Origin: Bacteroidales bacterium
GTDB taxonomy: Bacteria; Bacteroidota; Bacteroidia; Bacteroidales; ML635J-15
Direction: 5' to 3'
Assembly: GCA_045112395.1 (NCBI GenBank)
Contig: JBGUHW010000218.1
Location: 1 to 61,627 of the forward strand
DNA: 61,627 nucleotides
In this document: positions 5,223-55,552 of the stretch, in pieces
How the letters are laid out: each line of letters starts with the position of its first letter
Position numbering within the stretch: position 1 is the stretch's first letter
Translations under genes and position numbers: made by a program
Notes under the pieces: generated by a model
What the model was told of the DNA's origin: nothing
Databases searched by the model: none
The model's input: only the letters and a program-made list of their open reading frames with translations

Positions 5223-5325
5223 ATTTACGATTTACGATTTTTGATTTACGATTTAATGGGTTTGAAGATTTGAAAGATTTGAAAAATTTGCTTGCGCGAA
5301 CTAAAGGTTGAAGATTTGAGGATTG
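5223..5325. repeat. Intergenic array: TTTACGA heptamers followed by TTTGAAGA-type octamers
   Basis: TTTACGA TTTACGA TTTTTGA TTTACGA ... TTTGAAGA TTTGAAAGA TTTGAAAAA. Confidence 0.85.
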
Positions 5326-5451
5326 CAGACACTAACTAATTTATGATGAAAATTATTAATACGGCAACTCCACCATTTAATTTTTCTTAATAAATTTTAT
5401 TCTCACTATTTTTTACTAATTTAGCACCCAAAATAAAAACCTGAAAAAATT

Positions 5452-6870
5452 ATGTTGAGCGAAAACGAAATAAAACGGCAGAAAAGCCTCCTCGAAAGCG
5501 AAGGAAACTTTGTTGACATTGCTGCACCTGCAACACCAGAAAACGGCATAACAATTATTGAAAACCAGCAGAAATACATCGAAACATACGATAATAAAAG
5601 CAAGAACTACAGCATAGAAAAGTTTGTGCCAGCATCGGGAGCGGCAACCAGGATGTTCAAGCGACTCATAGCATTCAACAACGAGCCGAACCTGAAAAAC
5701 CTCCACGACGGAGGCGACTACTCTGTAAAAGCGACAATAGATGCATTGCCCAAGTTCGCATTTTTCGACACGCTGAAAGGCAGCATTAAGGATGCCGAAA
5801 ATCTGGAGGAAGTTTCCGACCACATACTCCACCAACCACTGAATTATGCAGGTCTACCAAAAGGTCTTGTAGAATTTCACAAATACAATGGTTTTTCGCG
5901 CACCGCATTCGAGGAACAGATATTCGAAGGCGTGGCAATGAATAATTCCGAAGCTCCAGCAAAACTTGAATTCACTGTATCGGAAGAACATTACGAAATG
6001 TTCCGCACGTTGCTAGACAAGATTCTGCAAAAGAATAAACTAAATGTTGATGTAAAATTCTCGTTCCAGGAAAAATCCACCAACACAGTTGCAATTTACA
6101 ACGATGGCAGCCTTGTTATGACAGATTCGGGCGAACTTTTCACCCGTCCTGGCGGACATGGTTCGCTGTTGCAGAACCTTAATCAGATTGATGCCGATAT
6201 TATCTTCATCAAGAATATCGATAACATTGTTCATCAGGACTATATGCCAGAAACTCTTCCATACAAAAAACTTCTCGGTGGAGTACTGATAGAAACAGCA
6301 GAAAACATTAAGTCGTATATGCAGAGCCTCGAAAGCGACAAGTCGGCAGAAAATTGCAACCGCATAGCCAACAGCTTGGAAAAGACCTTCTGCACCACCA
6401 TAGAAAGAAACGAAAACCTCTACGACTCGCTCTGCAAATTCATGAATCGCCCAATTCGAGTATGCGGAATGGTGAAAAACACTGGAGAACCTGGCGGTGG
6501 TCCATTTCTTGTAAGAAAAGACGGAAATGTTTCGTTGCAGATAGTTGAAAAAGCCCAGATAAACCTTGCCGACGAACAGCAAAAGGATTATTTCAACAAA
6601 TCGACACACTTCAATCCTGTTGACCTCGTATGCTACACCAAGGATTACACTGGCAAGAAATTCGACTTGAACAAATTCGTTGACACATCAACATGCTTTG
6701 TATCTGAAAAGACATACAACGGCAAACCAATCAAGGTTTTGGAACACCCGGGACTATGGAACGGCTCAATGGCCGACTGGCTTACTATTTTTGTAGAAGT
6801 ACCGCTGATAACCTTCAATCCTGTCAAGGAACTCAACGACTTACTGCGCAAGGAACACCAAGCCAAATAG
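5452..6870 (+). CDS. DUF4301 family protein
   Basis: FVPASGAATRMFK, RPGGHG, GEPGGGPF, THFNPVD, PGLWNGSMA motifs. Confidence 0.9.
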   Translation: MLSENEIKRQKSLLESEGNFVDIAAPATPENGITIIENQQKYIETYDNKSKNYSIEKFVPASGAATRMFKRLIAFNNEPNLKNLHDGGDYSVKATIDALPKFAFFDTLKGSIKDAENLEEVSDHILHQPLNYAGLPKGLVEFHKYNGFSRTAFEEQIFEGVAMNNSEAPAKLEFTVSEEHYEMFRTLLDKILQKNKLNVDVKFSFQEKSTNTVAIYNDGSLVMTDSGELFTRPGGHGSLLQNLNQIDADIIFIKNIDNIVHQDYMPETLPYKKLLGGVLIETAENIKSYMQSLESDKSAENCNRIANSLEKTFCTTIERNENLYDSLCKFMNRPIRVCGMVKNTGEPGGGPFLVRKDGNVSLQIVEKAQINLADEQQKDYFNKSTHFNPVDLVCYTKDYTGKKFDLNKFVDTSTCFVSEKTYNGKPIKVLEHPGLWNGSMADWLTIFVEVPLITFNPVKELNDLLRKEHQAK

Positions 6871-6940
6871 GCGATTACAAACCATTAACTTGCTTGTAGA
6901 AAGCAAAAAATCTGTATTTTTGCAAAAAATAAATTAGAAT

Positions 6941-8863: not shown

Positions 8864-9404
8864 AGGCTGCGCCAGTTTGAATGTTTCAAGTTTCATGTTT
8901 CTGGTTTAAGGTTCAAAGTTCAAGGGTTTAAAAAGTTTGAGGGCTTCGCCGTTTCATGGGCTGACGCCCGTTTCTACACTGCACTGTTTCATGTATCAAG
9001 TTTAAATGGCTGATGCCCGTTTCTAAAAAAAGGAATGTCATGCTGAACTGGTTTCAGCATCTGATTCCTTTTTTTGTTTCTTAGTTTCAATGCCTGCGGC
9101 GTTTGAATGTTTCTTGTTTCATGTTTGAATGGCTGCGCCGTTTCATGGGCTGACGCCCGTTTCTACGCTACGCTGTTTCAAAGTTTAAATGGCTGATGCC
9201 GTTTCTATTTTTAACTTCGCTGAGGGCTTCACCGTTCTAAATTTTTAACAGTCTTGCGGTCTAACGGTCTGGCTGACTGTCAGACAGGTCTTCTGCTCGA
9301 CAGTTGGACTTTTAGCCTTTTCTTCTTCTAGCCTTTTAGCCCATAAAACTCTTTTGCATCTTGTCAGAGAAATCGTAAATCATACTTCCCTATTCGTAAA
9401 TATT
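8864..9404. repeat. Composite intergenic repeat region (GTTTC units with GGC-n-GCC mini-hairpins, REP in a hairpin, octamer element, AAATCGT heptamers)
   Basis: Seen directly; includes an ~80-bp duplication at 8942-9025 and 9131-9207. Confidence 0.85.
9025..9075. terminator. Bidirectional terminator-like hairpin with a REP in its loop
   Basis: AAAAAAAGGAAT [GTCATGCTGAACTGGTTTCAGCATCTG] ATTCCTTTTTTT. Confidence 0.65.
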
Positions 9405-10794: not shown

Positions 10795-11062
10795 GCTGGC
10801 GCCAGTTTGAATGTTTCACGTTTCAGGTTTCTGGTTTTAATGGCTACGCCGTTTCTGTGGCTGACGCTGTTTCTGTGGCTACGCCATTTCTAAGTTTCAA
10901 GTTTCATGGGCGAATGCCCGTTTCTAGGTTTCAGGTTTGGCTTACGCCGAGCTAAAGGTTAACTTAGTTGAGGACTTCGCCGCTCAATGGCTACCGCCGT
11001 TTGAATGTTTCAGGTATGCGTATAACCAGAAACTTGAAACCAGAAACCTTGAAACAAGAAAC
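10794..11062. repeat. Inverted GTTTC...GAAAC repeat array with mini-hairpins between convergent genes
   Basis: Left arm GTTTC units with GGCTACGCC, GGCTTACGCC and similar; right arm CAGAAAC TTGAAAC CAGAAAC. Confidence 0.85.
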
Positions 11063-11067
11063 TTTCC

Positions 11068-13863: not shown

Positions 13864-13982
13864 CTAGAAATTCCGAAATATTAGAAACATAGAAAGCCAA
13901 AACCAACCATTTCAAATTTTCAAATCGTCAAATCTTTCAAATCAATTAAATCGTAAATCGTACTTCGTCAATCGTAAATAAT
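13864..13982. repeat. Right-arm repeat array (AGAAA, TTCAAAT, AAATCGT) abutting the sufB promoter
   Basis: Seen directly. Confidence 0.8.
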
Positions 13983-18210: not shown

Positions 18211-18222
18211 TACATTACAAAC

Positions 18223-18255
18223 AAAAAAACGCTTCGGAAACCCGAGGCGTTTTTT
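18223..18255. terminator. Bidirectional intrinsic terminator
   Basis: AAAAAAACGCTTCGG-AAAC-CCGAGGCGTTTTTT between convergent genes. Confidence 0.8.
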
Positions 18256-18259
18256 ATAG

Positions 18260-20013: not shown

Positions 20014-20027
20014 AGCGAGATTTATTA

Positions 20028-20135
20028 TTTGATGATTTGAAAATTCGAAAATTTGATGATTAGATTTGTAGAGACGTGCCATGGCGCGTCGCCACAAATT
20101 ATCAATTGTACATTGTCAATTGTCCATTATCAATT
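20028..20135. repeat. Octamer arm + GTAG REP + TTRTCAA heptamer arm
   Basis: TTTGATGA TTTGAAAA TTCGAAAA TTTGATGA; GTAGAGACGTGCCATGGCGCGTCGCCAC; TTATCAA TTGTACA TTGTCAA TTGTCCA TTATCAA. Confidence 0.85.
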
Positions 20136-20137
20136 CT

Positions 20138-21017: not shown

Positions 21018-21159
21018 TGTTTCTGGTTTCTGTGGGCTACGCCCGTTTCAATGTTTCAGGTTTCTAGGTTTCAATGGCTTCGCCGTTTCTAGGTTCGGGG
21101 CTCACAGGCTTGCTGGCTTACAGACTTTTGGACTGTTAGCCCGTGAGCCTTTTAGCCTT
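21018..21159. repeat. GTTTC/mini-hairpin arm followed by octamer element
   Basis: GTTTCTG GTTTCTG GGGCTACGCCC ... ACAGGCTT GCTGGCTT ACAGACTT ... TGTTAGCC CGTGAGCC TTTTAGCC. Confidence 0.85.
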
Positions 21160-21732
21160 CTAGCCCTTTATCTCATATTCCACCGCATCTATATGATAGA
21201 ACGACAAATACGCCTTGCCTTCCTTTGCTTTGCGTTCGGCAATCTTTGTGCGGAAGTCGGCAATGCGAGCTTCGGGAGTATTGGCAGTTTCCTGTCGCGA
21301 CTGCTTTTCAGCTCCACAGCCCTCGGCACCTTCGCCATGCTGCTCCATTCCTGCGAGTTCCTTTTCCCATTCGTTCAGGTAGTCCTCGTCAATGCGCTCC
21401 TCCCTGACAATGCCCTTTACATAAACAATATGCTCAAGACATTCCTGCTTGAAAGGCTCGCCAAGTTCCACACTTTCAACACGCAAAATCTGTGTATCAT
21501 CGCTGCCCATAAGGAACATTTTGCGTCCGCTGTGACGGCACAAATGCATACATACGCCCTCGATCTCCACAGTATCGCCGACCATTGCATCAAGTTTTGC
21601 AAGCGCATCGTCAACCTGCATTACCTTTGCTTCGGGAGCTTCTTGTTCAACCTCGGCATTTTTCTTTCCATTGCAGGAAAAAAGAGCAAATGCTACTATT
21701 ATTACCGCTAAAAATCCGAAAAATCTCTTCAT
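21160..21732 (-). CDS. Conserved hypothetical lipoprotein with CxHxCxH motif (OB-fold-like)
   Basis: Lipobox LFSC; VEIEGVCMHLCRHSG. Confidence 0.75.
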   Translation of the reverse strand: MKRFFGFLAVIIVAFALFSCNGKKNAEVEQEAPEAKVMQVDDALAKLDAMVGDTVEIEGVCMHLCRHSGRKMFLMGSDDTQILRVESVELGEPFKQECLEHIVYVKGIVREERIDEDYLNEWEKELAGMEQHGEGAEGCGAEKQSRQETANTPEARIADFRTKIAERKAKEGKAYLSFYHIDAVEYEIKG

Positions 21733-21830: not shown

Positions 21831-24146
21831 TTAACGAACGAGTATCTTTTCTGTATCATTATCACCAACTTTCACGATGTACATTCCTTGCGGCAAATTG
21901 TGTCTTTCTACATCGCTTACAACGGCAAACGACTCCACAACCTGACCTAACATATTATATACCATTACATTCAAGCCTTCTGCACCAGAAATCACCAATT
22001 CGTTATCGTATGAATAGATTTCGATGTTCCTTGCTTCGTCTGACAAAATGGAAGTAACAAGTTTGAATGAAACATCAACTGTAGCATCAGCCGTAACGGT
22101 AAGCGTATAGGTGTTGTTTTCAACTGTAACTGCTTCGCCGTCAACCTTGAATTCATCAAGCTCGTAGCCTTCCGCTGGAGAAATTGTGAAAACAACTTCT
22201 GTGTCGGCAAGCAAGTCTGTCAAAGATTCTGGTTCGGTAGTAACAGTGCCGTTTTCACCGACATTCAAGGTAATGGTGTAGGTTTCAGGTTCTACAGGTA
22301 TCAACTTGAAAGTTACATCGACAGTAGCATCAGCCGTAACGGTAAGCGTATATGTATTGTTTTCAACTGTAACTGCTTCGCCGTCAACCTTGAATTCGTC
22401 AAGTTCGTAGCCTTCCGTTGGAGAAATTGTGAAAACGACTTCCGTGTCGGCAAGCAAGTCGGTCAAAGATTCTGGTTCGGTAGTAACCGTGCCGTTTTCA
22501 CCAACATTAAGCGTAATAGTGTAGGTTTGCGGTGCTGGAGCAGTAAATTCATATCCCGGGAAAGTGTATTTTGCAACAACGCCCTGCCACGAATATGTTG
22601 AGGTGTAAGAAGTTGCGGTTTCGGCAAAAGCAAAATCCAATGCCTTGGTTGCCTGCACGCGAGTTGCAATCAAGAGAGAATCGCCTTTTACTGCGCACGA
22701 ATTTGCAGTTATCGAACCTGTTGATTCGCCCAGAATGTACGATGCAGAAGTTTCAAGATTGTGGTTGAACGAATCGAAGTAGAGCGATTTTGGCGAAGTT
22801 GCCCAGTTGTAGCCGTAAACGAAAACGCTGTCAGCATTCACGGCAAGTCCGAAACTATTTGAAATTCCGCTTGTCTGCTTTACAAAGCCCTTGTCGGCAA
22901 CACCTGTAGTGGCATTGCAGCGGAAAACGAAGCCTGCGTACATAGCTGCCTGTGCCGAAAGTTCATCATCGCCAACATTGAAACCTCCCTGAACGCCACC
23001 AGCGACAAAGAAACTTGAATTGTCGGGAGCGATTTCAAGTGCATTTATCTGCATAAAGTTCTTGTTATTAACCAAAGCACCCTGCACCAGCGACAAATAA
23101 TCAACCGACAAGTCGGAAGCATTTACCCTTGCAGTCCAGAAACTGTACTTGTCGTCGGGTGTAATCTGCGAATTACCAAGCGAAACAACAGCATTTGCAC
23201 CTTTCAGATAACCAACGACATACAATTTTCCGTCCCTGTACTTCATCATCTTGGCAGTTTCACCAACCGACGAGCCGCCAGTAACAATATGACTATTATA
23301 GGTAAGGTCGCTGTTGAGTTTCAGCACAAATGCTGAGCCTGCAAACGCAGAACCACCGTCCCAGTCGGCAACATTGTGTGCCAAAATCTCATTCTCGCCA
23401 ATGTGCATCGTGCGTCTAAGGTTGCCCGTAACGAAGAAATTTCCGTTGGCATCCTGTGCTGCTCCGTAAAGTGAAAATCCATCCGATGTTCCCCAAGCGC
23501 TGCTTGTTGTCGGATTGTCAACTGGATTCCAATCGACTGTTGCACGGACTGCACTGCTAATGTTTCCATCGGCATCTACCTTTACAAAAACTGGCTGATA
23601 CACATTGTGATAGTCGGCATCGGGGAACGAAAACGAAATTGTTGTCTCGGTACCATTGTTGCCCACTAGCTGCAACAAAATGTCTGTTCCGTAGAAATTG
23701 GCGCTTGTGTGACGGGCTTTCAATGCCAGAAATGCACCGCCGTCGGCAGTTGGCGTGTAGTCGCTCGATGCCACATCAACATCACCGTTCTTCGAATAAA
23801 CCTTCCACAAGGCATTTCCGCTGAAATCGTGCTTTACCAACATAATGTTATTGTTGTAGCTCGTTCCGGAGTATGGAGCGCCCGTCATATCCTCACCCAG
23901 CAAATGTCCCTGCGTAGCAGCCACATCGCCAGTTGTGTCGGCATCGGAGCCCATACTTGCCAAAGTATATACATACCCAGCATCGTCCACCTTAGTGCCA
24001 TAAATGGTGGTCTGGGCCTTGTTCTGCGCGTTTGCCTCGGCAATAGCAGCCGAATACCAGTCAAAACTTATTTCCTGCGTCTGCGCACCAACGGCAAACG
24101 ACAAGCCAATAAAAAACAAAAACAATGATAAAACTTTACAATTCAT
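21831..24146 (-). CDS. T9SS-secreted surface protein: beta-rich N domain, two tandem B-repeat-like domains, type A CTD
   Basis: Signal peptide; two near-identical repeats (81-aa period); C-terminal VYNMLGQ...LPQGMYIVKV...KILVR. Confidence 0.85.
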   Translation of the reverse strand: MNCKVLSLFLFFIGLSFAVGAQTQEISFDWYSAAIAEANAQNKAQTTIYGTKVDDAGYVYTLASMGSDADTTGDVAATQGHLLGEDMTGAPYSGTSYNNNIMLVKHDFSGNALWKVYSKNGDVDVASSDYTPTADGGAFLALKARHTSANFYGTDILLQLVGNNGTETTISFSFPDADYHNVYQPVFVKVDADGNISSAVRATVDWNPVDNPTTSSAWGTSDGFSLYGAAQDANGNFFVTGNLRRTMHIGENEILAHNVADWDGGSAFAGSAFVLKLNSDLTYNSHIVTGGSSVGETAKMMKYRDGKLYVVGYLKGANAVVSLGNSQITPDDKYSFWTARVNASDLSVDYLSLVQGALVNNKNFMQINALEIAPDNSSFFVAGGVQGGFNVGDDELSAQAAMYAGFVFRCNATTGVADKGFVKQTSGISNSFGLAVNADSVFVYGYNWATSPKSLYFDSFNHNLETSASYILGESTGSITANSCAVKGDSLLIATRVQATKALDFAFAETATSYTSTYSWQGVVAKYTFPGYEFTAPAPQTYTITLNVGENGTVTTEPESLTDLLADTEVVFTISPTEGYELDEFKVDGEAVTVENNTYTLTVTADATVDVTFKLIPVEPETYTITLNVGENGTVTTEPESLTDLLADTEVVFTISPAEGYELDEFKVDGEAVTVENNTYTLTVTADATVDVSFKLVTSILSDEARNIEIYSYDNELVISGAEGLNVMVYNMLGQVVESFAVVSDVERHNLPQGMYIVKVGDNDTEKILVR

Positions 24147-24325: not shown

Positions 24326-27097
24326 ATGAAAATTATTTTTATCATTTTGTGCTTTTGTGTGTTGCCTGCGAGTGTACTTGCGGGCAACACCTTGACAATA
24401 AAGCTACTGGACAAGGCAAACAATTCACCAGTAGCTGATGCATACATATATGCTTCGGACAGCAACGGCAAATCGACTGGCGCGGTAAGCGACGACAACG
24501 GCACGGCAAAACTGATACTCGGCAACGGTGAATACACAATATACATTTCGCACATACAATACGAAACGCAGCAAACAAGCATAAAGCTTGAAAAAGACCT
24601 CTCCTTGACATTCTACCTACAAAAAAAGAACTATCAGCTCGGCGAAGTCGTTGTAACGGCCTCCGAATCGAAGAAAATCGGTTCGGTATCGACCATCGGG
24701 CGCGACGCAATGAGCCACTTGCAACCAACAAGCATCGGCGACCTTATGGAACTTCTGCCAGGTGGTGTTTCGCAGACGCCATCGCTCACCCAGGGCAACT
24801 CCATATCGCTGCGTGAAACTGGTTCGCTCGGCTCCAGCGGACAGAAAACGAACAGTTCACAATACTCTACCAATTCGCTCGGCACTTTGTTCGTAGTCGA
24901 TGGCGCACCAATAAACACCGATGCAAATATGCAGTATATGCAGAACGGTGGCTTCGACGGTATGGATATGACCAACCGCGGTGTCGATATGCGAACCATC
25001 AGCACCGACGACATCGAAAGCATAGAAGTTATGCGCGGAATACCATCGGTAGAATACGGCAACCTGACAAGCGGAGTGGTGAACATCAAGAAAATACGAA
25101 AACCGACAAAACTAAACGCCCGCTTCAAGGCCGACGACAAGAGCCAGCTTCTGTCGCTGGGAAAAGGTTTTGCTCTCGATTCAAGCAAATCGCACATCCT
25201 GAACATTGACGGTGGTCTGCTGAACGCCTACGCCGACATTCGCAATCCGCTCGAAGAATACAAGCGGGCAAACCTCTCGGCACGACTGACAAGCACTCTA
25301 AATAAAGAAAAGGTAACGTTGAAAATTACACCATCGGCGGAATATACAGGTTCATTCGACAACTACAAAACCGACGAAAACCTCAGCTATTCGGGCATAA
25401 ACACCTTCAAATCGACCTACCACAAACTAGCCGTAGGAAATGGAATCAGCATTTTGCCCAATGCGAATGGCCATTACCAGAAAACTATCGTCAATATGCA
25501 GTTAACTCAGGAGTTCGACAACCTTGAACGCCGAGTGCTTGTGGCACCGTCGCGGGCAGGCATAGCGCCAAGCAGCAACGACCCCGACGAATACGACGCA
25601 TATCTGCTTTTCAGCGAATATGTTGCCAACTACAAGGTCGATGGCAAGCCGTTCACCGCGTTTGCAAAAACAACCACCGACTTTGAGTTCAACAGCCAGC
25701 ACATAGTGAACGCTCTGAAATTCGGTGCGGAATGGAATATGTCGAAGAATTTCGGCAAAGGGCAGATATACGACCTTTCGCATCCGCTATCGACCAAGGG
25801 CTGGGGCAGCCGTCCGCGCCAATACAACGAAATTCCCGCTTCGCACACACTGTCGCTTTATGTTCAGGACTACATAACCGCCAGAATCGGCAAACATCTT
25901 CTCGAAGCACGGATAGGTGCGCGTTCAACCTCAATTCTCGGATTGTCAAAGGAATACGCAATGCATGGAAAATTCTACCTTGACCCTCGCATAAATCTGC
26001 AATGGACACTGCCTCACTTCGGCGAAAAGCAATGGAGCATATCGTTTTCGGGCGGAATCGGACACACAACCAAAATGCCTACAATGAACTATCTTTACCC
26101 CGATGCCAACTACATAGACATCATACAGTTAGCTTACTACAACCAGAGCAACCCTGCGGAGTTCAGCCGATACAACATATTGAGCTACAAGGAAGATGCT
26201 ACCAACTTTGCGCTTCAACCGGCACGAAACCTAAAAGGCGAGTTCCGCGTTGACTTCGAGATTGAAGGCTATCGGCTTTGGGTGTGCGTTTTCGACGAGA
26301 AAATGTCGTCGGGATTCCGCTATTCAAGCACCTACACGGCATTCGACTACAAGGACTACGACGAAACCACCATAGATGCCAACCTTGCTGCCCGTCCCGA
26401 ACTTGCCGACATCACTTATGAAGCACGAAGGATACTTGGCGGGTACAGTTTTGTCGAAAATGGTAGCCGACAAGACAAGATTGGTATTGAATGGGAATTT
26501 TCATCGGCAAGAATAAAACCGCTATGCACGGCCATAAAGTTCAGCGGAGCGTGGTTCCGTAGCATTTATGTCAACAGTCGTCCGATGTTCTACCCCGTCA
26601 GCAGTGTGGTGGATAATGTGGTGATTTCCAACAATTACATCGGTCTTTACGACTGGAACGACGGACGCATAAACGAGCAATTAAGCACCAATTTGTTCCT
26701 TGATACGCAAATCCCGAAACTGAAACTTATTTTCTCGACATCGGTGCAGGCAATGTGGTTCGTCTCGACAAAGCGTATGGAACAGAACTGCATTCCAGTG
26801 CAATATCTTTCGGTAACCGACGGTCAGTTGCACGACTACACCGACGAAGCCGTTGCCGAAAATCCACTGTTGCGCCACCTCGTCTATAACCTCAGCGAAT
26901 CGGCCTACGAGAAATACACAATTCCACCTGCGATATACATAAACCTGAAAGTCACGAAGAACATTGGCAAATGGCTTAGCATGTCGCTTTTTGTAAACAA
27001 ACTGCTCGACTATACCTCCGACTTCAGACGCAACGATGTGCTTATCAGGCGCAATGCAACGCCTTATTTCGGAATGGAAATAAATATGAAAATTTAA
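24326..27097 (+). CDS. TonB-dependent receptor
   Basis: CarboxypepD-like N domain, LGEVVVTA, plug GVDMRTISTDDIESIEVMRGIPSVEYG, C-terminal YFGMEINMKI; start moved to ATG 24326. Confidence 0.93.
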   Translation: MKIIFIILCFCVLPASVLAGNTLTIKLLDKANNSPVADAYIYASDSNGKSTGAVSDDNGTAKLILGNGEYTIYISHIQYETQQTSIKLEKDLSLTFYLQKKNYQLGEVVVTASESKKIGSVSTIGRDAMSHLQPTSIGDLMELLPGGVSQTPSLTQGNSISLRETGSLGSSGQKTNSSQYSTNSLGTLFVVDGAPINTDANMQYMQNGGFDGMDMTNRGVDMRTISTDDIESIEVMRGIPSVEYGNLTSGVVNIKKIRKPTKLNARFKADDKSQLLSLGKGFALDSSKSHILNIDGGLLNAYADIRNPLEEYKRANLSARLTSTLNKEKVTLKITPSAEYTGSFDNYKTDENLSYSGINTFKSTYHKLAVGNGISILPNANGHYQKTIVNMQLTQEFDNLERRVLVAPSRAGIAPSSNDPDEYDAYLLFSEYVANYKVDGKPFTAFAKTTTDFEFNSQHIVNALKFGAEWNMSKNFGKGQIYDLSHPLSTKGWGSRPRQYNEIPASHTLSLYVQDYITARIGKHLLEARIGARSTSILGLSKEYAMHGKFYLDPRINLQWTLPHFGEKQWSISFSGGIGHTTKMPTMNYLYPDANYIDIIQLAYYNQSNPAEFSRYNILSYKEDATNFALQPARNLKGEFRVDFEIEGYRLWVCVFDEKMSSGFRYSSTYTAFDYKDYDETTIDANLAARPELADITYEARRILGGYSFVENGSRQDKIGIEWEFSSARIKPLCTAIKFSGAWFRSIYVNSRPMFYPVSSVVDNVVISNNYIGLYDWNDGRINEQLSTNLFLDTQIPKLKLIFSTSVQAMWFVSTKRMEQNCIPVQYLSVTDGQLHDYTDEAVAENPLLRHLVYNLSESAYEKYTIPPAIYINLKVTKNIGKWLSMSLFVNKLLDYTSDFRRNDVLIRRNATPYFGMEINMKI

Positions 27098-27148
27098 AAT
27101 TCGTAAAATATGAAAACAGAAAATTATCAATTCCCTATAAAAGAGACG

Positions 27149-27339
27149 GTCATTCCGCAAGTCAGAACATACACGCGATACGGAACGGAGAGCGTTGTAA
27201 TGTTCGATTGTGCGGTACGCTACAGCCTCGTGAAGCGAAGCGAACAATCTCCTACTGAACCAATATTAGAAGGAGATTCCGTACAGACAGGTTCACAAGG
27301 CTCGTTCCTGCGCCTGTTCGCTTTGTCTTACGGAATGAC
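27149..27339. repeat. REPIN/MITE-like nested inverted-repeat element
   Basis: Ends GTCATTCCG...CGGAATGAC; inner pairs AGCCTCGTGAA/TTCACAAGGCT and AATCTCCT/AGGAGATT. Confidence 0.7.
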
Positions 27340-32077: not shown

Positions 32078-33535
32078 TTACTTTACAGGAACATTCTTCA
32101 AGGTTTCAACCAAGAACTTCCAGAATTTCTCAACCGAAGCAACATTTACTCTCTCAACTGGTGAGTGCGGATGTTCGATGGTCGGACCAAACGAAATCAT
32201 ATCCCAGTTTGGATAAACGAAGCCCAACAGACCGCATTCCAGACCAGCGTGGATAGCCATAACCTTTGCTTCCTCGTTGAACAGACGCTTGTAGCAGTCC
32301 TTCATTGTGTTGAGGATTGGCGAATTCATGTTAGGATTCCATCCCGGGTATGAGCCAGAGAATTCAACATTTGCACCAATCAGGTCGAAAACTGTACCAA
32401 TCTTGTACATTGTTCCCTTCTTAGCCGACTCTACCGAGCTACGGGTCAAGCACTTAACTGAGAAGTTGCCGTCCTTGCACTCAACTATTGCCAAGTTGTT
32501 CGAAGTTTCAACCAAACCAGGCATCGAGTCGCTCATTCTTACTACGCCGTGAGGGCATACGAATGTAGCCTTGATTATCTTTTCGCCGATTTCCTTTTCT
32601 GCAACCTTTGCAGGCATAGCAACCTTTGCAGCGCAGAGAGCAATACCCTTTTCGGTAGCTGCAAATTCGCTCTTGTAGTAGCCATCAAATCTTGCGACTT
32701 CTGCTTCGAAGTTAGCGCAGTCGGCATTAGCGATGAGAACTATTGCGTAAGCCTCGCGTGGGATAGCGTTGCGCATGTCACCGCCCTTAATTTCAGCAAG
32801 ACGCATATCGGTCTTGTAGAGGCAGTGGTTGAGGAATCTAACGAGGAGCTTGTTGGCATTTGCACGACCGATGTTGATGTCCATACCGCTGTGACCGCCG
32901 TTCAAGCCCTTAACGTCGATGCGATAAGCTGTATAACCAGCAGGAGCAGCACATTCGTCGTACTTCATGGTGACATTTACATCAACGCCACCAGCGCAAC
33001 CAACGTAAAGTTCGCCTTCTGTCTCGGAATCGAGGTTCATGAGGATGTCGCCCTTGAGCATACCAGCTTTCAGGTGGTTAGCACCAGTCATACCGGTTTC
33101 CTCGTCGATTGTAAAGAGGGCTTCGATTGGTCCGTGAACGAGATCCTTCGATTCGAGGACTGCCATTGCAGCAGCACAACCCATACCGTTGTCGGCACCG
33201 AGAGTGGTCTGGTTTGCGCGTACCCATTCGCCATCGATGATGGTTTCAATCGGGTCCTTGGTAAAGTCGTGAACCTTCTCGTTGTTCTTCTGCGGAACCA
33301 TGTCGAGGTGACCCTGGAGGATAACACCCTTGCGGTTTTCCATACCTGGAGTTGCAGGCTTGCGGATTATTACGTTGCCGATTTCATCGACTACAGTTTC
33401 GAGACCTAACTTTTCGCCAAATTCCTTAACAAAAGCCACAACCTTTGCTTCATGCTTCGATGGACGCGGAATCTGTGTCAGTGAATAGAAATTCTTCCAT
33501 ACACCCTGTGGATTCAATTTTGTGATTTCACTCAT
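32078..33535 (-). CDS. pepD: Aminoacyl-histidine dipeptidase (M20)
   Basis: LQGHLDMV, TTLGADNG, DEETGM, GGHSG, IHAGLECG, HSPVER. Confidence 0.96.
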   Translation of the reverse strand: MSEITKLNPQGVWKNFYSLTQIPRPSKHEAKVVAFVKEFGEKLGLETVVDEIGNVIIRKPATPGMENRKGVILQGHLDMVPQKNNEKVHDFTKDPIETIIDGEWVRANQTTLGADNGMGCAAAMAVLESKDLVHGPIEALFTIDEETGMTGANHLKAGMLKGDILMNLDSETEGELYVGCAGGVDVNVTMKYDECAAPAGYTAYRIDVKGLNGGHSGMDINIGRANANKLLVRFLNHCLYKTDMRLAEIKGGDMRNAIPREAYAIVLIANADCANFEAEVARFDGYYKSEFAATEKGIALCAAKVAMPAKVAEKEIGEKIIKATFVCPHGVVRMSDSMPGLVETSNNLAIVECKDGNFSVKCLTRSSVESAKKGTMYKIGTVFDLIGANVEFSGSYPGWNPNMNSPILNTMKDCYKRLFNEEAKVMAIHAGLECGLLGFVYPNWDMISFGPTIEHPHSPVERVNVASVEKFWKFLVETLKNVPVK

Positions 33536-33702
33536 AATTTTATTTGTTTTTTAATTTGTTTGAAATTTTATTTAGTGATGGCAAATGTAAGAAATATTTC
33601 TGAATCGCAAACCTAAAATAATGATAATTTGTATCGCACATCAAACCATCATAAACCAGAATCATGTACAATCGCTGTGCGCCAAAACGCAACAAGATTT
33701 GT

Positions 33703-33842
33703 GGGCTAAAAGGCTAAAAGAAGAGAAGGCTAAAAGTCTAGCAGAAGGCCGGCCAATCTGTCTGCAAGTCTGTCAGCCTGTGAGACTGCAAGACTGTCAG
33801 ACTGTGAGCCTGTTAGCCTGTGAGACTGTTAGACAGCAAGCC
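33703..33842. repeat. Octamer element (AAAGGCTA arm, core, TGTNAGMC arm)
   Basis: Left part is the near reverse complement of 9306-9345; right part has about 8 tandem octamers. Confidence 0.85.
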
Positions 33843-33964
33843 TTCAAGCACCATTTCGGCATGCACATTGCAATATAAAATACCTGTTGTTAAAATAATT
33901 TTAAGGTTACAATACCGTTTATAAACGGATAGTTTCGTATATTTGCAGTTTAAATTTTTATGAG

Positions 33965-35032
33965 ATGAAAAAGGTCTTGTTCATTATTATAGCGGTTATC
34001 TGTGGTGCACAAGTCGTTAACGCACAGATAAAATGGATGGGCATAGAAGAAGCCATGCGCAAGCAGGACTCGATGCCCAAGACGGTAATGATTGACATGT
34101 ACACCGACTGGTGCGGATGGTGCAAGAAGATGGATGCCGAAACCTTCAGCAACCCCGAACTGGCAGCATACATAAACGCCAACTTCTACCCTGTGAAGTT
34201 CAATGCCGAAACCACCGACACCATAATGTTCCCCGTAAAGCACACCGACGAGAAAACTGGCGAAAAAGTCACAGAACTCAAGCCCTTCATAAATCCGCAG
34301 ATTGGCAACCGCTCATCGCACATGCTTGCACAAATGCTACTAAGCGGACGTATGTCGTATCCGTCAACAGTTTTCATCGACTTCGAAGGCAACATAGCTC
34401 CTGTGCCCGGGTTTATGACAGTAGAAAACTTTGAACCTTTATTAATATATTTTGCCGAAAGAATCAACAAATACAGCGCATGGGACGAATACATGCAATG
34501 CTTCAACGCCGCCTTCCGTCCAGAACTCGACACAATAGAAATGTTCAACGGCACTATCGACTGGATGGACTTCAACAAGGCAGTGGAAAAAATGAAAACT
34601 CAGCCTAAGAAACTCCTGCTCTACATTTATTCCGACTGGAACTCAAGCAGTAAGATAATGCTCGGCGGTTCGTTCAAGGAGAAAGTCATTGCCGACTATA
34701 TAAACAAAAACTTCTACGCAGCTAAAATACCTTACGATATTGCCGATACGCTGACAATTGCAGGCAAGGCATTCGTAAACGAAACCAAGCAAGTGCAGTT
34801 CCCTCACCAGCTTGTGCTGTCGTTGCTTCACCCCGACTACAGGATTCCCGCTTTCGTGATTTTTGATGAAAACGCAACCCATCCTTTGTTCGTGCAACGC
34901 GGATTCTCATCATACACAACCATCGAGAAACTGCTGACATATTTCGGTGATGACCTGCTAAACAAAAATGTTGACCTGCAAAAATACTACGACGAATACA
35001 AATCAAAATTAAGAGACAAGAAAGATAAATAA
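33965..35032 (+). CDS. Exported thioredoxin-family protein (DUF255-like), two domains
   Basis: YTDWCGWCKKMD in domain 1; domain 2 YSDWNSSSK lacks cysteines. Confidence 0.85.
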   Translation: MKKVLFIIIAVICGAQVVNAQIKWMGIEEAMRKQDSMPKTVMIDMYTDWCGWCKKMDAETFSNPELAAYINANFYPVKFNAETTDTIMFPVKHTDEKTGEKVTELKPFINPQIGNRSSHMLAQMLLSGRMSYPSTVFIDFEGNIAPVPGFMTVENFEPLLIYFAERINKYSAWDEYMQCFNAAFRPELDTIEMFNGTIDWMDFNKAVEKMKTQPKKLLLYIYSDWNSSSKIMLGGSFKEKVIADYINKNFYAAKIPYDIADTLTIAGKAFVNETKQVQFPHQLVLSLLHPDYRIPAFVIFDENATHPLFVQRGFSSYTTIEKLLTYFGDDLLNKNVDLQKYYDEYKSKLRDKKDK

Positions 35033-42133: not shown

Positions 42134-42270
42134 ATGACAATTCTCAATTGACAATGGATAATTAACAATTTATAATTCCATACAAATCATCAACCTTTAG
42201 CACAACGAAGTTAAATTTTCAAACCACGAGAAACCCAGAAACTTAGAAACGGGCGTTAGCTCATTGAAAC
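42134..42270. repeat. TGACAAT arm and GAAAC arm
   Basis: TGACAAT TCTCAAT TGACAAT GGATAAT TAACAAT ... GAGAAAC CCAGAAAC TTAGAAAC GGGCGTTAGCTC. Confidence 0.75.
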
Positions 42271-47391: not shown

Positions 47392-47557
47392 TGTTTCTCG
47401 TTTTCGGCTTGCAGGCACAAAGGCTAAAAGACCGACAGGCTTGCAGGCTAACAGTCTGGCGTACAGTCAGACAGGTCTTCAGCTAGACAGTTAGACTTTA
47501 AGCCAAATAATCTTCAATAAATCAATCGTAAATCGTACTTCGTAAATCGTAAATATT
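47392..47557. repeat. Octamer element plus AAATCGT heptamers abutting promoter
   Basis: 47441-47504 closely matches 9254-9317. Confidence 0.85.
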
Positions 47558-50706: not shown

Positions 50707-53700
50707 CTATTTGTTTCCATCCAACATTATAAATGCTGCCCAATATCTTGGATTCTCGAATCCTTGTGTCGTCTTTACCTTGCTCTGTGCCGCTAGGAAA
50801 GCTTCGCGCTTGGTCATCCCCTTGGTGAGATTTGCGTAGAATTCTGTCATCATCAGCAGGGTGGCATTGTCATCTACTGGCCAGAGGCTCATGATTATAG
50901 TACGCACACCTGCCTTCTTGAAGCCTCTCTGCAGACCGAACACACCTTCGCTGGAGATTTCACCCAAGGCTGTCTGGCAGGCCGAAAGTACAACCAAATC
51001 GGTGTTGCGCAAGTCCATCTGACTGATTTCCTTGGCTGTAAGGATGCCATCCTCAACGCCATCAGGGATTGGCAGGTTTTGCCATGCATAGTTTGCTCCC
51101 GAAAGCATAAGTCCCGACTGTATAAGCGAGAAGTCGCCCTGCAATTTTTCATCGGTAGGCAGGAAGAATCCATGAGTTGCAATGTGAATTGTAGAAATGT
51201 CTTTCCCCGACAGAGCCTTGAACGATTCCTCGTTTGCCTGCGAGCCTTCGTATAGCGTTGTTGATATTTTCCCTTTCGACTTTAATGTACTCACAATGTC
51301 TTCGACCTCCGTCTTAGTGCCAGGCAAATAATTTACACTTCCATGATCCTCATCCTTGTTGAATGCGGCAAATGATGTATAGGTCGCACTGCGGGTTGAA
51401 TATCGGTTACTCTCACGCTTCATGGTAGTGGTGTCGCTATCGTAGTATATGCCTCCGTAAAGTGTCGAACTGCTCATCGGCTTTACAATGTAGTCCATGG
51501 CAAGAAAACGAGTGGAGGATATTCTATAAATCTCGTACTTGTCAGATATAAGTTTCCCGTTACCTATTGGAGCATACTCGATGGCCACCTGATGCAGCAT
51601 TCCAGATGGAGCAAAATATATGCGCGGATTCTCGGGGAAATATTTTTCCATAGGTTTCCAAAGTGTCCTGTATAATTCAGTCGATTCATAAATTCCCTGC
51701 CGTTTTGACGAAACCGACACTGCCCCACGGTTTTCGTCTTCGGTTGGTGTCTCGGTTCTTGCCGGAGCTACACCGCGAATCATCTTCTGCAGTTCGTACT
51801 GATTGAAAAGCGGCACGCATACAGGCGCTTCAATGCCCTTTGTAAGCACAAGTGCAACATACCATGTTGTATCTTTCTTGATGTAATTGGAAAATTCAAT
51901 TGCAACATCGTTGTTTTTCAGCGACTTTTGCACTTCCTTCCAATCAATTTTTATGAAATGCGTTACATCGCCAAACTCCTTGCAGTTTTCCATAACGAGC
52001 CTTTCCTTTTTCCTTATCTCGTTTTCAAGCGAATCGCAGTTGTATTCACGATTATCTATAGGTTTTTCGAAATCCTTGTTAAGTTGCATCTGCATGGTTT
52101 TCAATGCCTCGTAATCGGAAATCAGTGAATTATTGCCGCTTTCCAAAATTATGTTTGTCACACTGATTTCAGAGGCGAGCAACAAACCTTTGGTGATTAG
52201 TTCTACATCATACGATGTTTTTGTCGCCATGGTGTCGTTAGGCAATTGTGACATATATATAATGTTGCATTGGATAAATTGCCTGTTGGCATTCCAGTAT
52301 GCTTCGCGTTCATGGGCAGTCATAAATGAAAAGTTGCTACACAAATGGCTTTTGCGCTTGTCGATGGCAAGTTTATTGTACATTATGGCTTTCTTGTAGT
52401 CGCCCATTTTGTAATATGTGTTGCCGAGATTAGTTAGCAACATTTCATATCTGGGATGATTCTCACCCAAAGTTCTTTTTGTTATTTCCAGTGCTTGCGT
52501 ATAATATTTCAATGAATTTTGGTAATCTTTCAGTTCATTATATACAATTCCAATATTATTAAGCGACAATATATAGTCGGGATGTTCTTCGCCGAAAACC
52601 TTTTTTCTAACTTTCATCGCTTGCTCATGATATTCCAACGCATCTTGATATTCTTTCATATCAACAAACAAATTGGCTATACCAGACAACGAACTAGCAT
52701 AGTCAGGATGATTCTCGCCATAAATCTTTAGCTCTATTTCCAATGCTTTTATAAGATAATCCACGGCGTTCCGATTGTCTCCCAAATCATGATATAGCAA
52801 TCCAACATTATGAAGCGATGCAGCATAGTCGGGATGTTCTTCGCCAAGTGTCTTTTTTCGTATTTCCATCGCCTGTAAATTGTATTTCAAGGCATTCTGG
52901 TAGTCATCCATATTCATATAAACAACGCCAATGTTATTAAGAGCATCTGCATATTCGGGATTATTCTCGCCATACAACCCCCTATTGAAATCCAATACTT
53001 GCGTATAATATTTCAGGGCAGTCTGATAGTCGCACAGATTATCATATACCATTGCAATATTATTAAGCGCAGATATGTATTCGGGATGATTCTCACCATA
53101 AAACTTTCTCAAAATTTCAATCGACTGCGTATAATACATTAAGGCATTCTTATAGTTTCCCATATCCATATATGCAAGACCCATATTGTTAAGCGGGATA
53201 GCACAATTTACATGTTCGTCTCCATAAATCTTTTTGTCTATTTCCAGTGCCTGCATAAAATATTTCAGTGCGGTTATGTAGTCGCATTTATGATAATAAA
53301 CAAGACCGATCTTATTAAGTTCTTTTGCATAGTAAGGATGCTCCTTCCCTTTTGCTTTCCTTATTATTTCCAATGCAAGTTTATGATACTCCAAAGCTTT
53401 ACGATGATCTTCCTTGTCTAGGTATAAATTACCTATATCGCTCAATGCTTTTGCATATTCGGAATTGCTTTCTCCCCAAAACTTCTTTTTGATTTCCATT
53501 GCTTGGGTATAACATTTTATAGCCTCCTGATAGTTTGCCATGCTTTTATATAGAGCACCTATACTTGTAAGCGATATGGCATAAATGGGATGTTCTTCGC
53601 CTAGTGTCTGCTTGCGAATATCGGCGGCCTGCATGTAACATTTCAAAGCGTTCTGATAGTCTGCCATTTTCAAATAGGCATCACCAATATTGTTTAGGCT

Positions 53701-55404
53701 TTTAGCATATTCGGGATGATTCTCCCCATATACCTTTTTACATATTTCCAATGATTGAGCAAGATATTTCCTAGCAGTCTGGTACTCGCCCATATTTTCA
53801 TAAGTAACACCTATATTATTAAGCAAGTTTGAAATGTCAATAGAATTTTCAGGACATACTTTGCTTTTTATATCCAACGACTTCTGGTAATATTTTAATG
53901 CATTGGAGTTATCCTCTTTCGATATATATATATTACCTATATTGCTAAGCACAGTTGCATATTCGAGCGAATTTTCACCATTATTTTTCCTATCGTATTC
54001 TAGCACCTGCTGATAATATTCCATTGCCGTTTTATAATCTTCCAGTTTTTCATAAACGGCACCGAGATGGTGCAATGATTCAATGTAATCGGGAGAATTC
54101 ACACCGGGAGTTTTTTCCCTTATTTCCAATGCCTGCTGATGATATTTCAACGAGGTTGTGTAGTCGCCAATATTATAATATCCAACGCCTATGGCACTGA
54201 GCGCTTTTGCATAATCTCCAGGGGTATCTTCGGATCCTTTTGGTGTTTTTAGATAATATTTCAAAGAGTTATAGTAGTCGCCCTTGTCGTAATACAGTTT
54301 TCCGATTTTGTAGACTGTTTTCGAATAGTCAACACTCATATTTCCATTTTTCTCTAGCATTTCTTCAAGCTGAGTTAAATAGTTCATTGCGTTTGGAATG
54401 TCCTTAGTGGCATAATATGCATTGGACACCAAGGTAAGAAGATATATGTATCCGTCATTTTCCTCGCCATATAGCATTTTCCATGTTTCCATTGCCGGAA
54501 CATTATATTTCAATGAGCTTCGATAATCCTCAAGATAATAATATGAATATCCGATCATGGCAAGCAGATTCACATATTTGGAAGATGTCTTGTCGTAAGT
54601 GTCTACTATTGTTAGAGCATATTTCAAGGTGTTTGGGTAGTCATCCATTTTGTAATACATTAAACTGATGTTGAAAACAGTCTGTATATACTCTGGATCA
54701 TTCTCTCCAAGGGTGTTTTTTTGTACATCTCCCAGTTTTATGTAATATTTCAATGCGTTCTGATTGTCTTTTATAGTATAATATGTAGATGCTATGTTGT
54801 CCAATGTTAATGCGTAGCTGGAATGGTTTGTTCCGAGTGTCTTCTCCTTGATTTCCAGAATCTCCATATAATATTTGATAACATTTTGATAGTCTTCCAG
54901 TTCATTGCAGATGGAGATAATGCTATTTAGTGTTCTCATGTAATCGGTGTGTTCTATTCCTACGACTTTTTTTCGAACGTCCAACGCTTGAACTAAGTAA
55001 TTAAAAGCATTCTGGTGCTCATTCATCTTTTCATATTCAAGACCAACCTGACTGAGCAGTGCCGCATATTTAATATTTTCAGTTCCATTGAGGCCTCCAT
55101 AGACGTCCTTTGCAATGATGTAACAATTCACGGATTTCTGATGTTCACCGTTTTTTGAATATGCATACGCCATATTGTAAATTGCCATGGCATAATATGA
55201 GTTTTTACCATTATCAACCTTCTTGGCAAGTTCAGCGGCTTCACCATACTTAGCAATTGCTTCTTTGTATTTTTGAGCATTACAATAGCTGTCTCCCACT
55301 TTTTTTATGGAGTCCACCCTGTTGTATATTGCGGTAGCATCGGTTTGAGAGAACAACAGGTTGCACAAAAGTGCGAGAATTATGAGTGATAATATTTTCT
55401 TCAT
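50707..55404 (-). CDS. TPR-repeat CHAT-domain (caspase-like) protease with signal peptide
   Basis: Many 42-aa TPRs (GEEHPDYA..LNNIG); HIATHG and LSACQT catalytic motifs. Confidence 0.93.
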   Translation of the reverse strand: MKKILSLIILALLCNLLFSQTDATAIYNRVDSIKKVGDSYCNAQKYKEAIAKYGEAAELAKKVDNGKNSYYAMAIYNMAYAYSKNGEHQKSVNCYIIAKDVYGGLNGTENIKYAALLSQVGLEYEKMNEHQNAFNYLVQALDVRKKVVGIEHTDYMRTLNSIISICNELEDYQNVIKYYMEILEIKEKTLGTNHSSYALTLDNIASTYYTIKDNQNALKYYIKLGDVQKNTLGENDPEYIQTVFNISLMYYKMDDYPNTLKYALTIVDTYDKTSSKYVNLLAMIGYSYYYLEDYRSSLKYNVPAMETWKMLYGEENDGYIYLLTLVSNAYYATKDIPNAMNYLTQLEEMLEKNGNMSVDYSKTVYKIGKLYYDKGDYYNSLKYYLKTPKGSEDTPGDYAKALSAIGVGYYNIGDYTTSLKYHQQALEIREKTPGVNSPDYIESLHHLGAVYEKLEDYKTAMEYYQQVLEYDRKNNGENSLEYATVLSNIGNIYISKEDNSNALKYYQKSLDIKSKVCPENSIDISNLLNNIGVTYENMGEYQTARKYLAQSLEICKKVYGENHPEYAKSLNNIGDAYLKMADYQNALKCYMQAADIRKQTLGEEHPIYAISLTSIGALYKSMANYQEAIKCYTQAMEIKKKFWGESNSEYAKALSDIGNLYLDKEDHRKALEYHKLALEIIRKAKGKEHPYYAKELNKIGLVYYHKCDYITALKYFMQALEIDKKIYGDEHVNCAIPLNNMGLAYMDMGNYKNALMYYTQSIEILRKFYGENHPEYISALNNIAMVYDNLCDYQTALKYYTQVLDFNRGLYGENNPEYADALNNIGVVYMNMDDYQNALKYNLQAMEIRKKTLGEEHPDYAASLHNVGLLYHDLGDNRNAVDYLIKALEIELKIYGENHPDYASSLSGIANLFVDMKEYQDALEYHEQAMKVRKKVFGEEHPDYILSLNNIGIVYNELKDYQNSLKYYTQALEITKRTLGENHPRYEMLLTNLGNTYYKMGDYKKAIMYNKLAIDKRKSHLCSNFSFMTAHEREAYWNANRQFIQCNIIYMSQLPNDTMATKTSYDVELITKGLLLASEISVTNIILESGNNSLISDYEALKTMQMQLNKDFEKPIDNREYNCDSLENEIRKKERLVMENCKEFGDVTHFIKIDWKEVQKSLKNNDVAIEFSNYIKKDTTWYVALVLTKGIEAPVCVPLFNQYELQKMIRGVAPARTETPTEDENRGAVSVSSKRQGIYESTELYRTLWKPMEKYFPENPRIYFAPSGMLHQVAIEYAPIGNGKLISDKYEIYRISSTRFLAMDYIVKPMSSSTLYGGIYYDSDTTTMKRESNRYSTRSATYTSFAAFNKDEDHGSVNYLPGTKTEVEDIVSTLKSKGKISTTLYEGSQANEESFKALSGKDISTIHIATHGFFLPTDEKLQGDFSLIQSGLMLSGANYAWQNLPIPDGVEDGILTAKEISQMDLRNTDLVVLSACQTALGEISSEGVFGLQRGFKKAGVRTIIMSLWPVDDNATLLMMTEFYANLTKGMTKREAFLAAQSKVKTTQGFENPRYWAAFIMLDGNK

Positions 55405-55407
55405 TGC

Positions 55408-55552
55408 GTTTAAGTTTCTTGGTTTTCTGGGCTTGAAGGCTCAAAGGCTAACAGACTGATAGCCAATCGACTTTTAGCCTTTTTGCCCAATAAAGCAAAT
55501 CCCATTGCATCTTGTCGCCCAATCTAAAATCGTAATTCGTAAATCGTAAATC
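55408..55552. repeat. Composite repeat array between the CHAT genes
   Basis: GTTTC, GAAGGCTC AAAGGCTA ACAGACTG, TTTTAGCC, AAATCGT AATTCGT AAATCGT. Confidence 0.8.

Follow-up and report, generated by a model that had tools for sequence, protein, structure and literature searches.

The window analysed here is the whole 61,627-nucleotide stretch of contig C218 (GenBank JBGUHW010000218.1) from a gut Bacteroidales genome, designated G000, which comprises 3.14 Mb in 223 contigs at 42% G+C and has a completeness score of 99.9%. Our subject is a set of tandem arrays, built of 7-8 bp units, that lie in the spacers between its protein genes. An earlier note on this DNA had listed 12 spacers with such arrays and had sorted the units into five families (F1 to F5), each said to show one form on the left side of a spacer and the reverse complement (rc) on the right. 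Reading of the raw sequence, together with Tandem Repeats Finder, which returned periods of 7, 8, 14-18 and 24 bp in these spacers, found arrays in the described orientations in 12 of 12. We define a strict array as at least three cores spaced 6-10 bp, and the mirror rule as the forward form lying toward the left edge of a spacer and the reverse complement toward the right edge; under this definition, 10 of 10 arrays in the window follow the rule. The arrays and the hairpins that accompany them are listed below by position in the window.

5224-5254, plus strand: F1 array (TTTACGA units), left-hand form, adjoining the 5' end of the minus-strand gene 4536-5189
5261-5320, plus strand: F4 array (TTTGAARA units), left-hand form
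8864-9215, plus strand: long F2 array (GTTTCNN), mixed with GGC-loop-GCC mini-hairpins and one copy of a dispersed module of ~28 bp
9247-9341, no strand assigned: F3 and F3rc arrays forming a long imperfect hairpin
9369-9400, minus strand: F1 array, right-hand form, immediately upstream of a TAnnTTTG-type box
10806-10940, plus strand: F2 array, left-hand form, with mini-hairpins
11024-11064, minus strand: F2 array, right-hand form (GAAAC)
13866-13980, minus strand: F2, F4 and F1 arrays in succession, all in right-hand form, followed by a promoter-like box
20019-20066, plus strand: F4 array, left-hand form
20068-20095, no strand assigned: 28-nt GTAG-headed palindrome, a core resembling repetitive extragenic palindromes (REPs); similar palindromes lie within arrays elsewhere in the genome
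20098-20137, minus strand: F5 array, right-hand form
21018-21093, plus strand: F2 array, left-hand form
21097-21170, no strand assigned: long F3/F3rc hairpin, extending into the last codons of gene 21160-21732
28694-28724, plus strand: F1 array, left-hand form, beginning directly after a stop codon
28729-28748, no strand assigned: GC-rich 20-nt hairpin core
28750-28811, minus strand: F2 array, right-hand form, ending 8 nt ahead of the ATG of the next gene
30317-30358, plus strand: F3 array, left-hand form
33703-33740, plus strand: F3 array, left-hand form
33762-33843, minus strand: F3 array, right-hand form, ~8-10 units
42134-42177, plus strand: F5 array, left-hand form, directly after a stop codon
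42213-42250, minus strand: short F4 array, then an F2 array, both in right-hand form
47392-47505, no strand assigned: short F2 array, then F3/F3rc arrays
47524-47554, minus strand: F1 array, right-hand form, after which comes a TAnnTTTG-type box
55407-55487, no strand assigned: F2 array, then F3/F3rc arrays
55527-55552, minus strand: F1 array, right-hand form, in direct contact with the stop codon of gene 55554-60953 (minus strand)

None of the 12 spacers holds a cargo open reading frame (ORF); every ORF of at least 25 codons within them is translated repeat. The earlier note had linked similar arrays to genes of the four-helix-bundle family TIGR02436 and had stated that no such gene lies here, which proved correct for the window, where we found neither an ORF nor a relic of this family (the best tblastn match in the contig has an E value of 4.7). 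At gathering score, Rfam returned a single tRNA (61040-61123) and no other RNA family in the window. Other spacers of the window carry ordinary terminators composed of an A-tract, a hairpin and a T-tract, for example at 18211-18259. The genome does therefore employ standard terminators, and the arrays are not of this kind.

Strand, period and folding of the arrays

Across the genome, the arrays are sharply confined both in period and in location. The 0.30 Mb of intergenic DNA holds 179 arrays with a period of 7 bp and 116 with a period of 8 bp, next to 5, 12 and 6 arrays at 6, 9 and 10 bp, and just 49 arrays of 7-8 bp occur in 2.84 Mb of coding DNA, a density of ~1 per kb of intergenic DNA versus 17 per Mb of coding DNA. 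The count of five families was too low, as many more families exist genome-wide. Genes were called with our own longest-ORF heuristic (2452 genes, leaving 1314 spacers of at least 30 bp), owing to which spacer edges at 5' ends are approximate and some cases of an array abutting a start codon are artefacts.

A genome-wide motif scan that recorded strand against position in the spacer showed that orientation is non-random, as the earlier note had expected. The mirror rule is kept by 146 of 176 strict intergenic arrays (binomial p 1.7e-19), and most of the 30 arrays that break it are situated around the middle of long spacers, where left cannot be told clearly from right. By family, the rule holds for 24/25 F1, 69/81 F2, 37/44 F3 and 12/17 F5 arrays and for 4/9 F4 arrays; on its own, F4 is without support for the rule under the strict definition. 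The same asymmetry emerges when families are disregarded. GC skew is positive in 158 and negative in 80 left-edge arrays, positive in 70 and negative in 154 right-edge arrays, and without any left/right split in 794 array-free spacers; the G-rich strand of the arrays reads inward. Two other candidate signals were rejected: AT skew, which tracks the direction of transcription, and the content of stop codons and ATGs, for which inspection of the families by eye found no single rule, stops lying on the outward-reading strand in F1 and F2 and on the inward-reading strand in F4 and F5.

The polarity is shared by tandem, convergent and divergent contexts (++, --, +- and -+), as had been claimed for the window, and it is kept near gene 3' ends (74/90) as near 5' ends (72/86). 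Where a spacer carries both orientations, the forward form lies to the left of the reverse form in 15 of 16 cases; such mirror images stand within ~100 bp of each other, which excludes the replication strand as the cause and upholds the earlier claim on this point. The companion claim, that transcription does not set the orientation, stands in part. It agrees with the spread over all contexts and with the tandem contexts, in which array strand equals gene strand in only 47 of 108 cases, but it fails for F1 at 5' ends.

There, a TAnnTTTG box, which we take from the Bacteroides promoter literature to be a promoter consensus, lies within 35 nt and points at the gene in 12 of 15 arrays. Among all F1 arrays the box is found on the outward side in 12/25, compared with 430/5000 control windows, and never on the inward side, and the F1 arrays at 3' ends keep the same edge polarity with the box missing in 10/10. 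Outward boxes are rare in the other families (F2 2/81, F3 0/44, F4 0/9, F5 1/17), so that only F1 shows the promoter link. At 5' ends, F1 is linked to promoters and does respond to the direction of transcription; F1 is frequently part of a repeat of ~53 bp that also holds a box-like stretch. Both F2 and F1 occur more often beside 5' ends (53/81 and 15/25), in their A-rich form.

Folds of six window spacers (z -0.9 to -2.6) consist of strong central hairpins and F3/F3rc stems, with the F1, F2, F4 and F5 edge arrays mostly unpaired. The 7-8 bp arrays are themselves not palindromic; GTAG-headed palindromes of 28 nt lie within arrays at many sites (58 regular-expression hits, uncurated). These folds bear on the idea that the arrays are paired arms of foldback or intervening-sequence-like stem-loops that close off a cargo, in RNA or in single-stranded DNA (ssDNA), as the long hairpins of the F3/F3rc pairs would suggest. 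The earlier note had likewise seen the arrays as inverted arms. Across 80 two-sided spacers of G000, however, complementarity between left and right arrays is the same within a spacer as between spacers (0.069 versus 0.070; permutation p 0.5), and the arrays are accordingly not inverted arms in the usual sense. For the edge arrays of the window, the paired-arm explanation is largely refuted; its standing at loci that do hold a cargo gene is taken up below.

A further repeat accompanies the arrays. Copies of the ~28-bp module (core AACTTCGTTGAGGGCTTCGCCGTTC) lie within F2 arrays or beside other repeats at window positions 9196-9225, 10953-10985 and 32000-32030 and at many other loci, and the module is scattered through G000 and four related genomes (G007, G009, G010 and G011).

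Turnover of spacers among relatives

We compared the spacers with their orthologues in five genomes of the genus (G007, G009, G010, G011 and G018), with flanks 74-97% identical. Orthologues of the same design differ by whole units or by small inserted modules, as in the spacers at 20098 and 10795 and in that at 21014 in G007. On the evidence of these alignments, arrays evidently grow and shrink by whole units of 7-8 bp.

Elsewhere the design itself is replaced. The spacer at 28694 is F1-hairpin-F2rc in G000 and G011 and F5-GTAG palindrome-F4rc in G007 and G010. That at 21014 is F2-F3/F3rc in G000 and F4-palindrome-F5rc in G011 and G018, while G010 has both designs stacked. One and the same unit, F4-GTAG palindrome-F5rc, occupies positions 20019-20137 of the window and the 21014 orthologue of G011 and G018, and recurs in the opposite orientation in the 28694 and 42134 orthologues of G007 and G010. 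At these sites the flanks are 88-97% identical and likeness is lost entirely exactly at the start or stop codon; arrays even supply the final few codons of a flanking gene. G009 is array-free at the 5190 and 47388 sites, the former (the spacer that holds the array 5261-5320) measuring 102 bp and containing, in place of the G000 array, a single F1-like unit. Whole units have thus been exchanged between spacers, stacked on one another or replaced, as far as selection on the flanking genes permits, a conclusion that the aligned spacers bear out. The comparison of orthologous spacers that the earlier note had proposed yielded replacement and presence/absence polymorphism, but no clean empty site that consists of the arms only.

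The turnover tells on a rival account of the arrays, that they are plain heptamer microsatellites which slip in place, with a polarity due to local mutational or selective bias and nothing mobile about them. The whole-unit differences between relatives are what slippage would produce, and the single F1-like unit of G009 speaks for it as well. An excess of intergenic heptameric simple sequence repeats (SSRs) in bacteria, with polymerase slippage as the suggested origin, is cited in a paper that also describes convergent heptamer pairs in Xanthomonas (Rehm 2015, PMC4692102). Yet slippage alone cannot account for the change from one family set to another across an entire spacer when the flanks in the two genomes are 92-96% identical, or for the presence of one three-part unit at different sites in both orientations, and it gives no reason for a mirror polarity common to many families. 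We consider plain slippage improbable.

Several further features came to light in the window and its orthologues. A dispersed element of ~250 bp fills the spacer at 27098-27409, whose orthologues measure 12 bp (G007, G011) or 255 bp (G010). Copies of the element with 71-88% identity occur elsewhere in G009, G011 and G018, on other contigs, and in rumen-type sequencing runs the summed contig depth has a peak at this spacer. A gene of 1565 aa (50707-55404), set between spacers that bear arrays or repeats, is without a syntenic counterpart in G009; the matched flanks stand ~390 bp apart there, against ~4.8 kb in G000. Conversely, G011 (positions 1830-5890 of locus L022, on contig C134) carries ~4 kb that G000 lacks at the corresponding place, following the start of the gene that lies downstream of the 28694 spacer. 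Its ORFs measure 79, 172 and 1047 aa, and that of 1047 aa encodes a subtilase with a type IX secretion sorting domain. Within the 771-aa gene 21831-24146 lies a 243-bp tandem duplication (22072-22528; 1.9 copies, 93% match).

Cassettes around TIGR02436 genes

G000 encodes three strong TIGR02436/PF05635 genes, and all three lie between 7-8 bp arrays, in line with the link drawn in the earlier note. The cassettes on contigs C161 and C195 have inverted arms with the polarity of the window arrays, and that on C111 has one array, in direct orientation, on both sides of the gene. Within the genus, TIGR02436 is present in 36 of 39 genomes at an E value of 1e-15 or better; among 30 loci that we fetched, arrays lie on both sides in 20, on one side in 7 and on neither in 3, and a 6-mer test classed the arms as direct in 11, inverted in 8 and unclear in 11.

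A scan with six close proteins against one genome per species extended this to 80 loci from many Bacteroidota families, along with a few records labelled as other phyla; cassette carriers occur in Flavobacterium, Chryseobacterium and Algoriphagus, among others. Arrays flank both ends of 54 of these loci, one end of 20 and no end of 6, and the arms are inverted in 39, direct in 9 and unclear in 32. Under the same scoring, 400 random genes, drawn from G000 only rather than from the 80 source genomes, had arrays on both sides in 9 cases, on one side in 74 and on neither in 317. One locus was without an ORF, and two with short flanks were dropped, leaving 78 for the comparison of arms. The upstream arm is G-rich in 62/76 and the downstream arm C-rich in 54/73, and arms of the same cassette share on average 16.8 reverse-complement 6-mers versus 7.2 between loci. 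The two arms also change jointly between orthologous loci (for example GGTTCAA/TTGAAC versus GATTTGAA/TCAAAT), and the stop codon of the TIGR02436 ORF often lies within the first downstream unit. Array units vary widely in sequence between species, even in orthologous cassettes whose proteins are 73-74% identical. Judged by these loci, polarised arrays evidently bracket the small, selfish-looking PF05635/TIGR02436 gene across Bacteroidota, with arms that tend to be complementary. Among genes in general with arrays on both flanks, a division into host-like and cargo-like polarity proved too noisy to use (8 host-like, 5 cargo-like and 19 mixed; n=32).

The relatives also offer states with and without the gene. 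In place of a TIGR02436 cassette of G010, G000 (C136) shows two genes that almost abut and is array-free there. At the site of an F2-TIGR02436-F2rc cassette in G009, G000 (C219) carries an F2 array together with a 402-aa ORF on the opposite strand. We rejected G007 as an empty site for the two inverted cassettes of G000; it holds a gene stump of ~15 codons at one of these places and other modules at the second, which are deletions or replacements rather than clean empties.

Matched arms that change jointly are what paired arms closing off a cargo would look like, and in this respect the cassettes fit the stem-loop explanation better than the cargo-less spacers do. Direct arrays, found in 9 of the 80 phylum-wide and 11 of the 30 genus cassettes, do not fit, and together with the unpaired edge arrays and unmatched sides of the window-type spacers they render pairing a very unlikely basis for the arrays of the window.

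A different possibility is that the arrays are functional RNA or ssDNA sites: a protein whose footprint is 7 nt would bind the tandem units of 7-8 nt and keep the flanks of intercistronic hairpins unfolded. Candidates would be a protein of the cold-shock-domain or S1 type and the TIGR02436 pentamer itself. Cold-shock proteins have a 7-nt footprint. A strict period of 7-8 nt is odd for plain slippage, the weak folding of the edge arrays beside strongly folding cores suits single-stranded sites, and the G-poor, A-rich form in which F2 and F1 favour 5' ends would suit translation initiation in Bacteroidota when placed ahead of start codons. For TAACTGA repeats just upstream of start codons, binding by S1, Csp or CsrA has been proposed (PMC4679880). 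What makes binding sites unlikely in our view is that polarity is equal at 3' and 5' ends, convergent spacers included, that unit sequences diverge as widely as they do, and that whole spacers have been exchanged for unrelated families without visible cost.

In a narrower version, the four-helix-bundle protein and the 7-8 nt arrays would form one system. The TIGR02436/PF05635 protein is a pentameric ring, and its family is present in cyanobacteria and Xanthomonas. As a candidate ring that binds tandem heptamers, it would do so on RNA or ssDNA as TRAP binds triplets, and the arrays would spread with the protein or because of it. If true, this would explain heptamer repeats across Bacteroidota, cyanobacteria and Xanthomonas, all of which carry the gene family; we think it quite unlikely.

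A further explanation is a repeat-adding enzyme. Such an enzyme would extend 3' ends at a break with G/T-rich units of 7-8 nt, in the manner of telomerase, and rejoining would leave head-to-head arrays. The head-to-head, G-rich-inward polarity, the mixture of families on the two sides and the unit length all agree with it. No RVT_1 match exists anywhere in this 99.9%-complete genome, however, which makes repeat addition by reverse transcriptase unlikely, and some cargo genes have arrays in direct orientation on both sides; we hold this explanation to be extremely improbable. The absence of an RVT_1 match also leaves G000 without the reverse transcriptase beside an Avd-like gene that marks a diversity-generating retroelement.

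Three Y1_Tnp matches were found in G000, and no Y1_Tnp gene lies beside the GTAG palindromes or the arrays. A 159-aa Y1 (HUH) transposase-like gene at C49:8570-9049 has copies of an 18-nt palindrome on both sides in opposite orientations, the classic layout of a REP-associated tyrosine transposase (RAYT) with its REPs, and a second such gene, with another palindrome family, lies on C2.

GxxExxY genes, which the earlier note had also placed between heptamers, are not flanked by them. Both copies in G000 sit inside a 104-bp module that is not heptameric. These are PD-(D/E)XK genes, and the sites of the module are C216:3180-4068, C43:28940-31656 and C118:2726-2828. The module occurs without a gene at several sites of G000 and in two spacers of G010 (one at 1935-2038 of locus L023), and thus forms a pair of cargo-carrying and empty states of its own.

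A modular reading and known systems

We favour, at somewhat less than even confidence, the reading that these spacers are cargo-less modular array-core-array units, rebuilt by slippage and by exchange of modules. Such a unit would consist of an array, a palindromic core or long F3 hairpin, and a second array, with the direction of each family toward the core fixed and the G-rich strand running 5' to 3' inward on both sides. It would read alike when flipped, so that mirror polarity would stem from the unit's own build and not from host transcription or replication. The arrays may be selfish or near-neutral DNA, maintained by polymerase slippage and by recombination between dispersed arrays. The same recombination, or some enzyme, could be the agent of exchange, and the arrays might serve as soft sites at which small genes and REP-like hairpins can settle.

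A number of results weigh against this modular reading. It leaves the G-rich-inward rule and the 7-8 bp period unexplained, and a dedicated enzyme for the arrays was not found in our searches; the hairpins on either side of the best Y1 transposase-like gene, that on C49, belong to a different family. None of the compared spacers has a target-site duplication, likeness ending at start and stop codons without a duplicated flank, and the sole clean pair of filled and empty TIGR02436 sites is array-free when empty. Arm families combine freely, and no single unit type covers most spacers. Under the strict definition, 118 of 134 array-bearing spacers have one orientation only, and 117 of the 139 arrays in them still comply with the mirror rule; a simple model of whole-unit insertion does not predict such one-sided compliance. 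Finally, TIGR02436 copy number does not significantly follow array density (rho 0.36, p 0.17) over 16 related genomes of the genus sampled at 50-400 kb each, the lowest densities (0.05 and 0.10 per kb) falling in the two genomes without a strong TIGR02436 match and G014, with four matches, also standing at 0.10. As for the earlier proposal of a non-autonomous mobile or repeat-adding system whose cargo is absent from the window, the link to a cargo gene and the turnover of spacers survive, matched arms do not, and a repeat-adding reverse transcriptase is unlikely.

Heptamer repeats have been noted in bacterial intergenic DNA since the short tandemly repeated repetitive sequences (STRRs) of cyanobacteria, without a function or an origin, and the PF05635 'IVS protein' family, for all that it is very common, likewise lacks an explanation. 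In this genome they are tied together by the period, the strand rule, the turnover of spacers and the phylum-wide association of gene and arrays. Two vague puzzles thereby become testable, by way of protein-array binding, RNA processing of the arms and the search for an enzyme that would account for period and polarity. The practical side is smaller: the arrays fragment metagenome assemblies and skew the calling of starts and stops at gene ends. Contigs from four DNA sequencing runs over window positions 26000-34200 were short, came from mixed organisms and were broken at arrays.

Matching terminal inverted repeats, as in MITEs (miniature inverted-repeat transposable elements), are lacking among the 80 two-sided spacers (p 0.5), and the compared sites show replacement in place of the clean empty site that a MITE would leave. 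Inverted arms of tandem subrepeats, as in foldback elements, are present in 39 of the 80 cassettes, while the cargo-less spacers of G000 are without matched arms. With REPs, the bacterial interspersed mosaic elements (BIMEs) made of them and their RAYTs, the spacers share intergenic mosaics around short GTAG-headed palindromes, in the cores only, and a genome that holds Y1 transposase-like genes; they differ in that arrays of 7-8 bp are not palindromes and that no RAYT-like gene flanked by the same palindromes stands beside the GTAG palindromes or arrays. Intervening sequences (IVSs) of 23S rRNA genes, reportedly described by Ralph and McClelland in 1993, are said to carry a PF05635 ORF, and as at C161 and C195 this gene family lies between inverted repeats. 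Such sequences lie within rRNA genes and are cut out by RNase III. Our cassettes and arrays lie between protein genes and not in rRNA genes, the arms are tandem arrays, and in the window these arms stand without a PF05635 gene.

Among published systems, the convergent heptamer pairs of Xanthomonas and the STRRs of cyanobacteria come nearest; intergenic units of ~7 bp, variation in unit number and convergent pairs on opposite strands are all found here. STRRs comprise several families of tandem heptamers in intergenic DNA, as do the arrays of G000, and we know of no report of mirror polarity or of a cargo link among them.

In the literature outside subscription journals and supplements, we found no published link of such arrays to PF05635/TIGR02436 genes and no multi-family mirror rule; neighbour genes relevant to the cargo link may stand in the supplementary tables that accompany MacGregor 2015 and Rehm 2015. 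The PF05635 gene has been reported in cas loci, in passages that make no mention of repeats (PMC3936711). TAACTGA direct repeats, which are likewise intergenic heptamer arrays, occur in Beggiatoaceae, cyanobacteria and five Bacteroidetes, where other heptamers lie beside them, and often end just before start codons (MacGregor 2015, PMC4679880); the orientation given in the relevant passages is that relative to the downstream start codon, whereas the rule found here also holds at 3' ends and in four contexts. In Xanthomonas, GGGAATC heptamers form 70-75 convergent opposite-strand pairs per genome, and their unit number varies between close species, with no link to mobile elements according to the pertinent passages (Rehm 2015, PMC4692102). 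Intergenic heptamer arrays, variable unit number and convergent pairs are thus common to both. The Xanthomonas repeats belong to one G-quadruplex-prone (G4) family, and the same passages do not mention a PF05635 link; in G000, by contrast, many non-G4 families of 7 and 8 bp combine freely, around REP-like palindrome cores and with a link to PF05635 genes.

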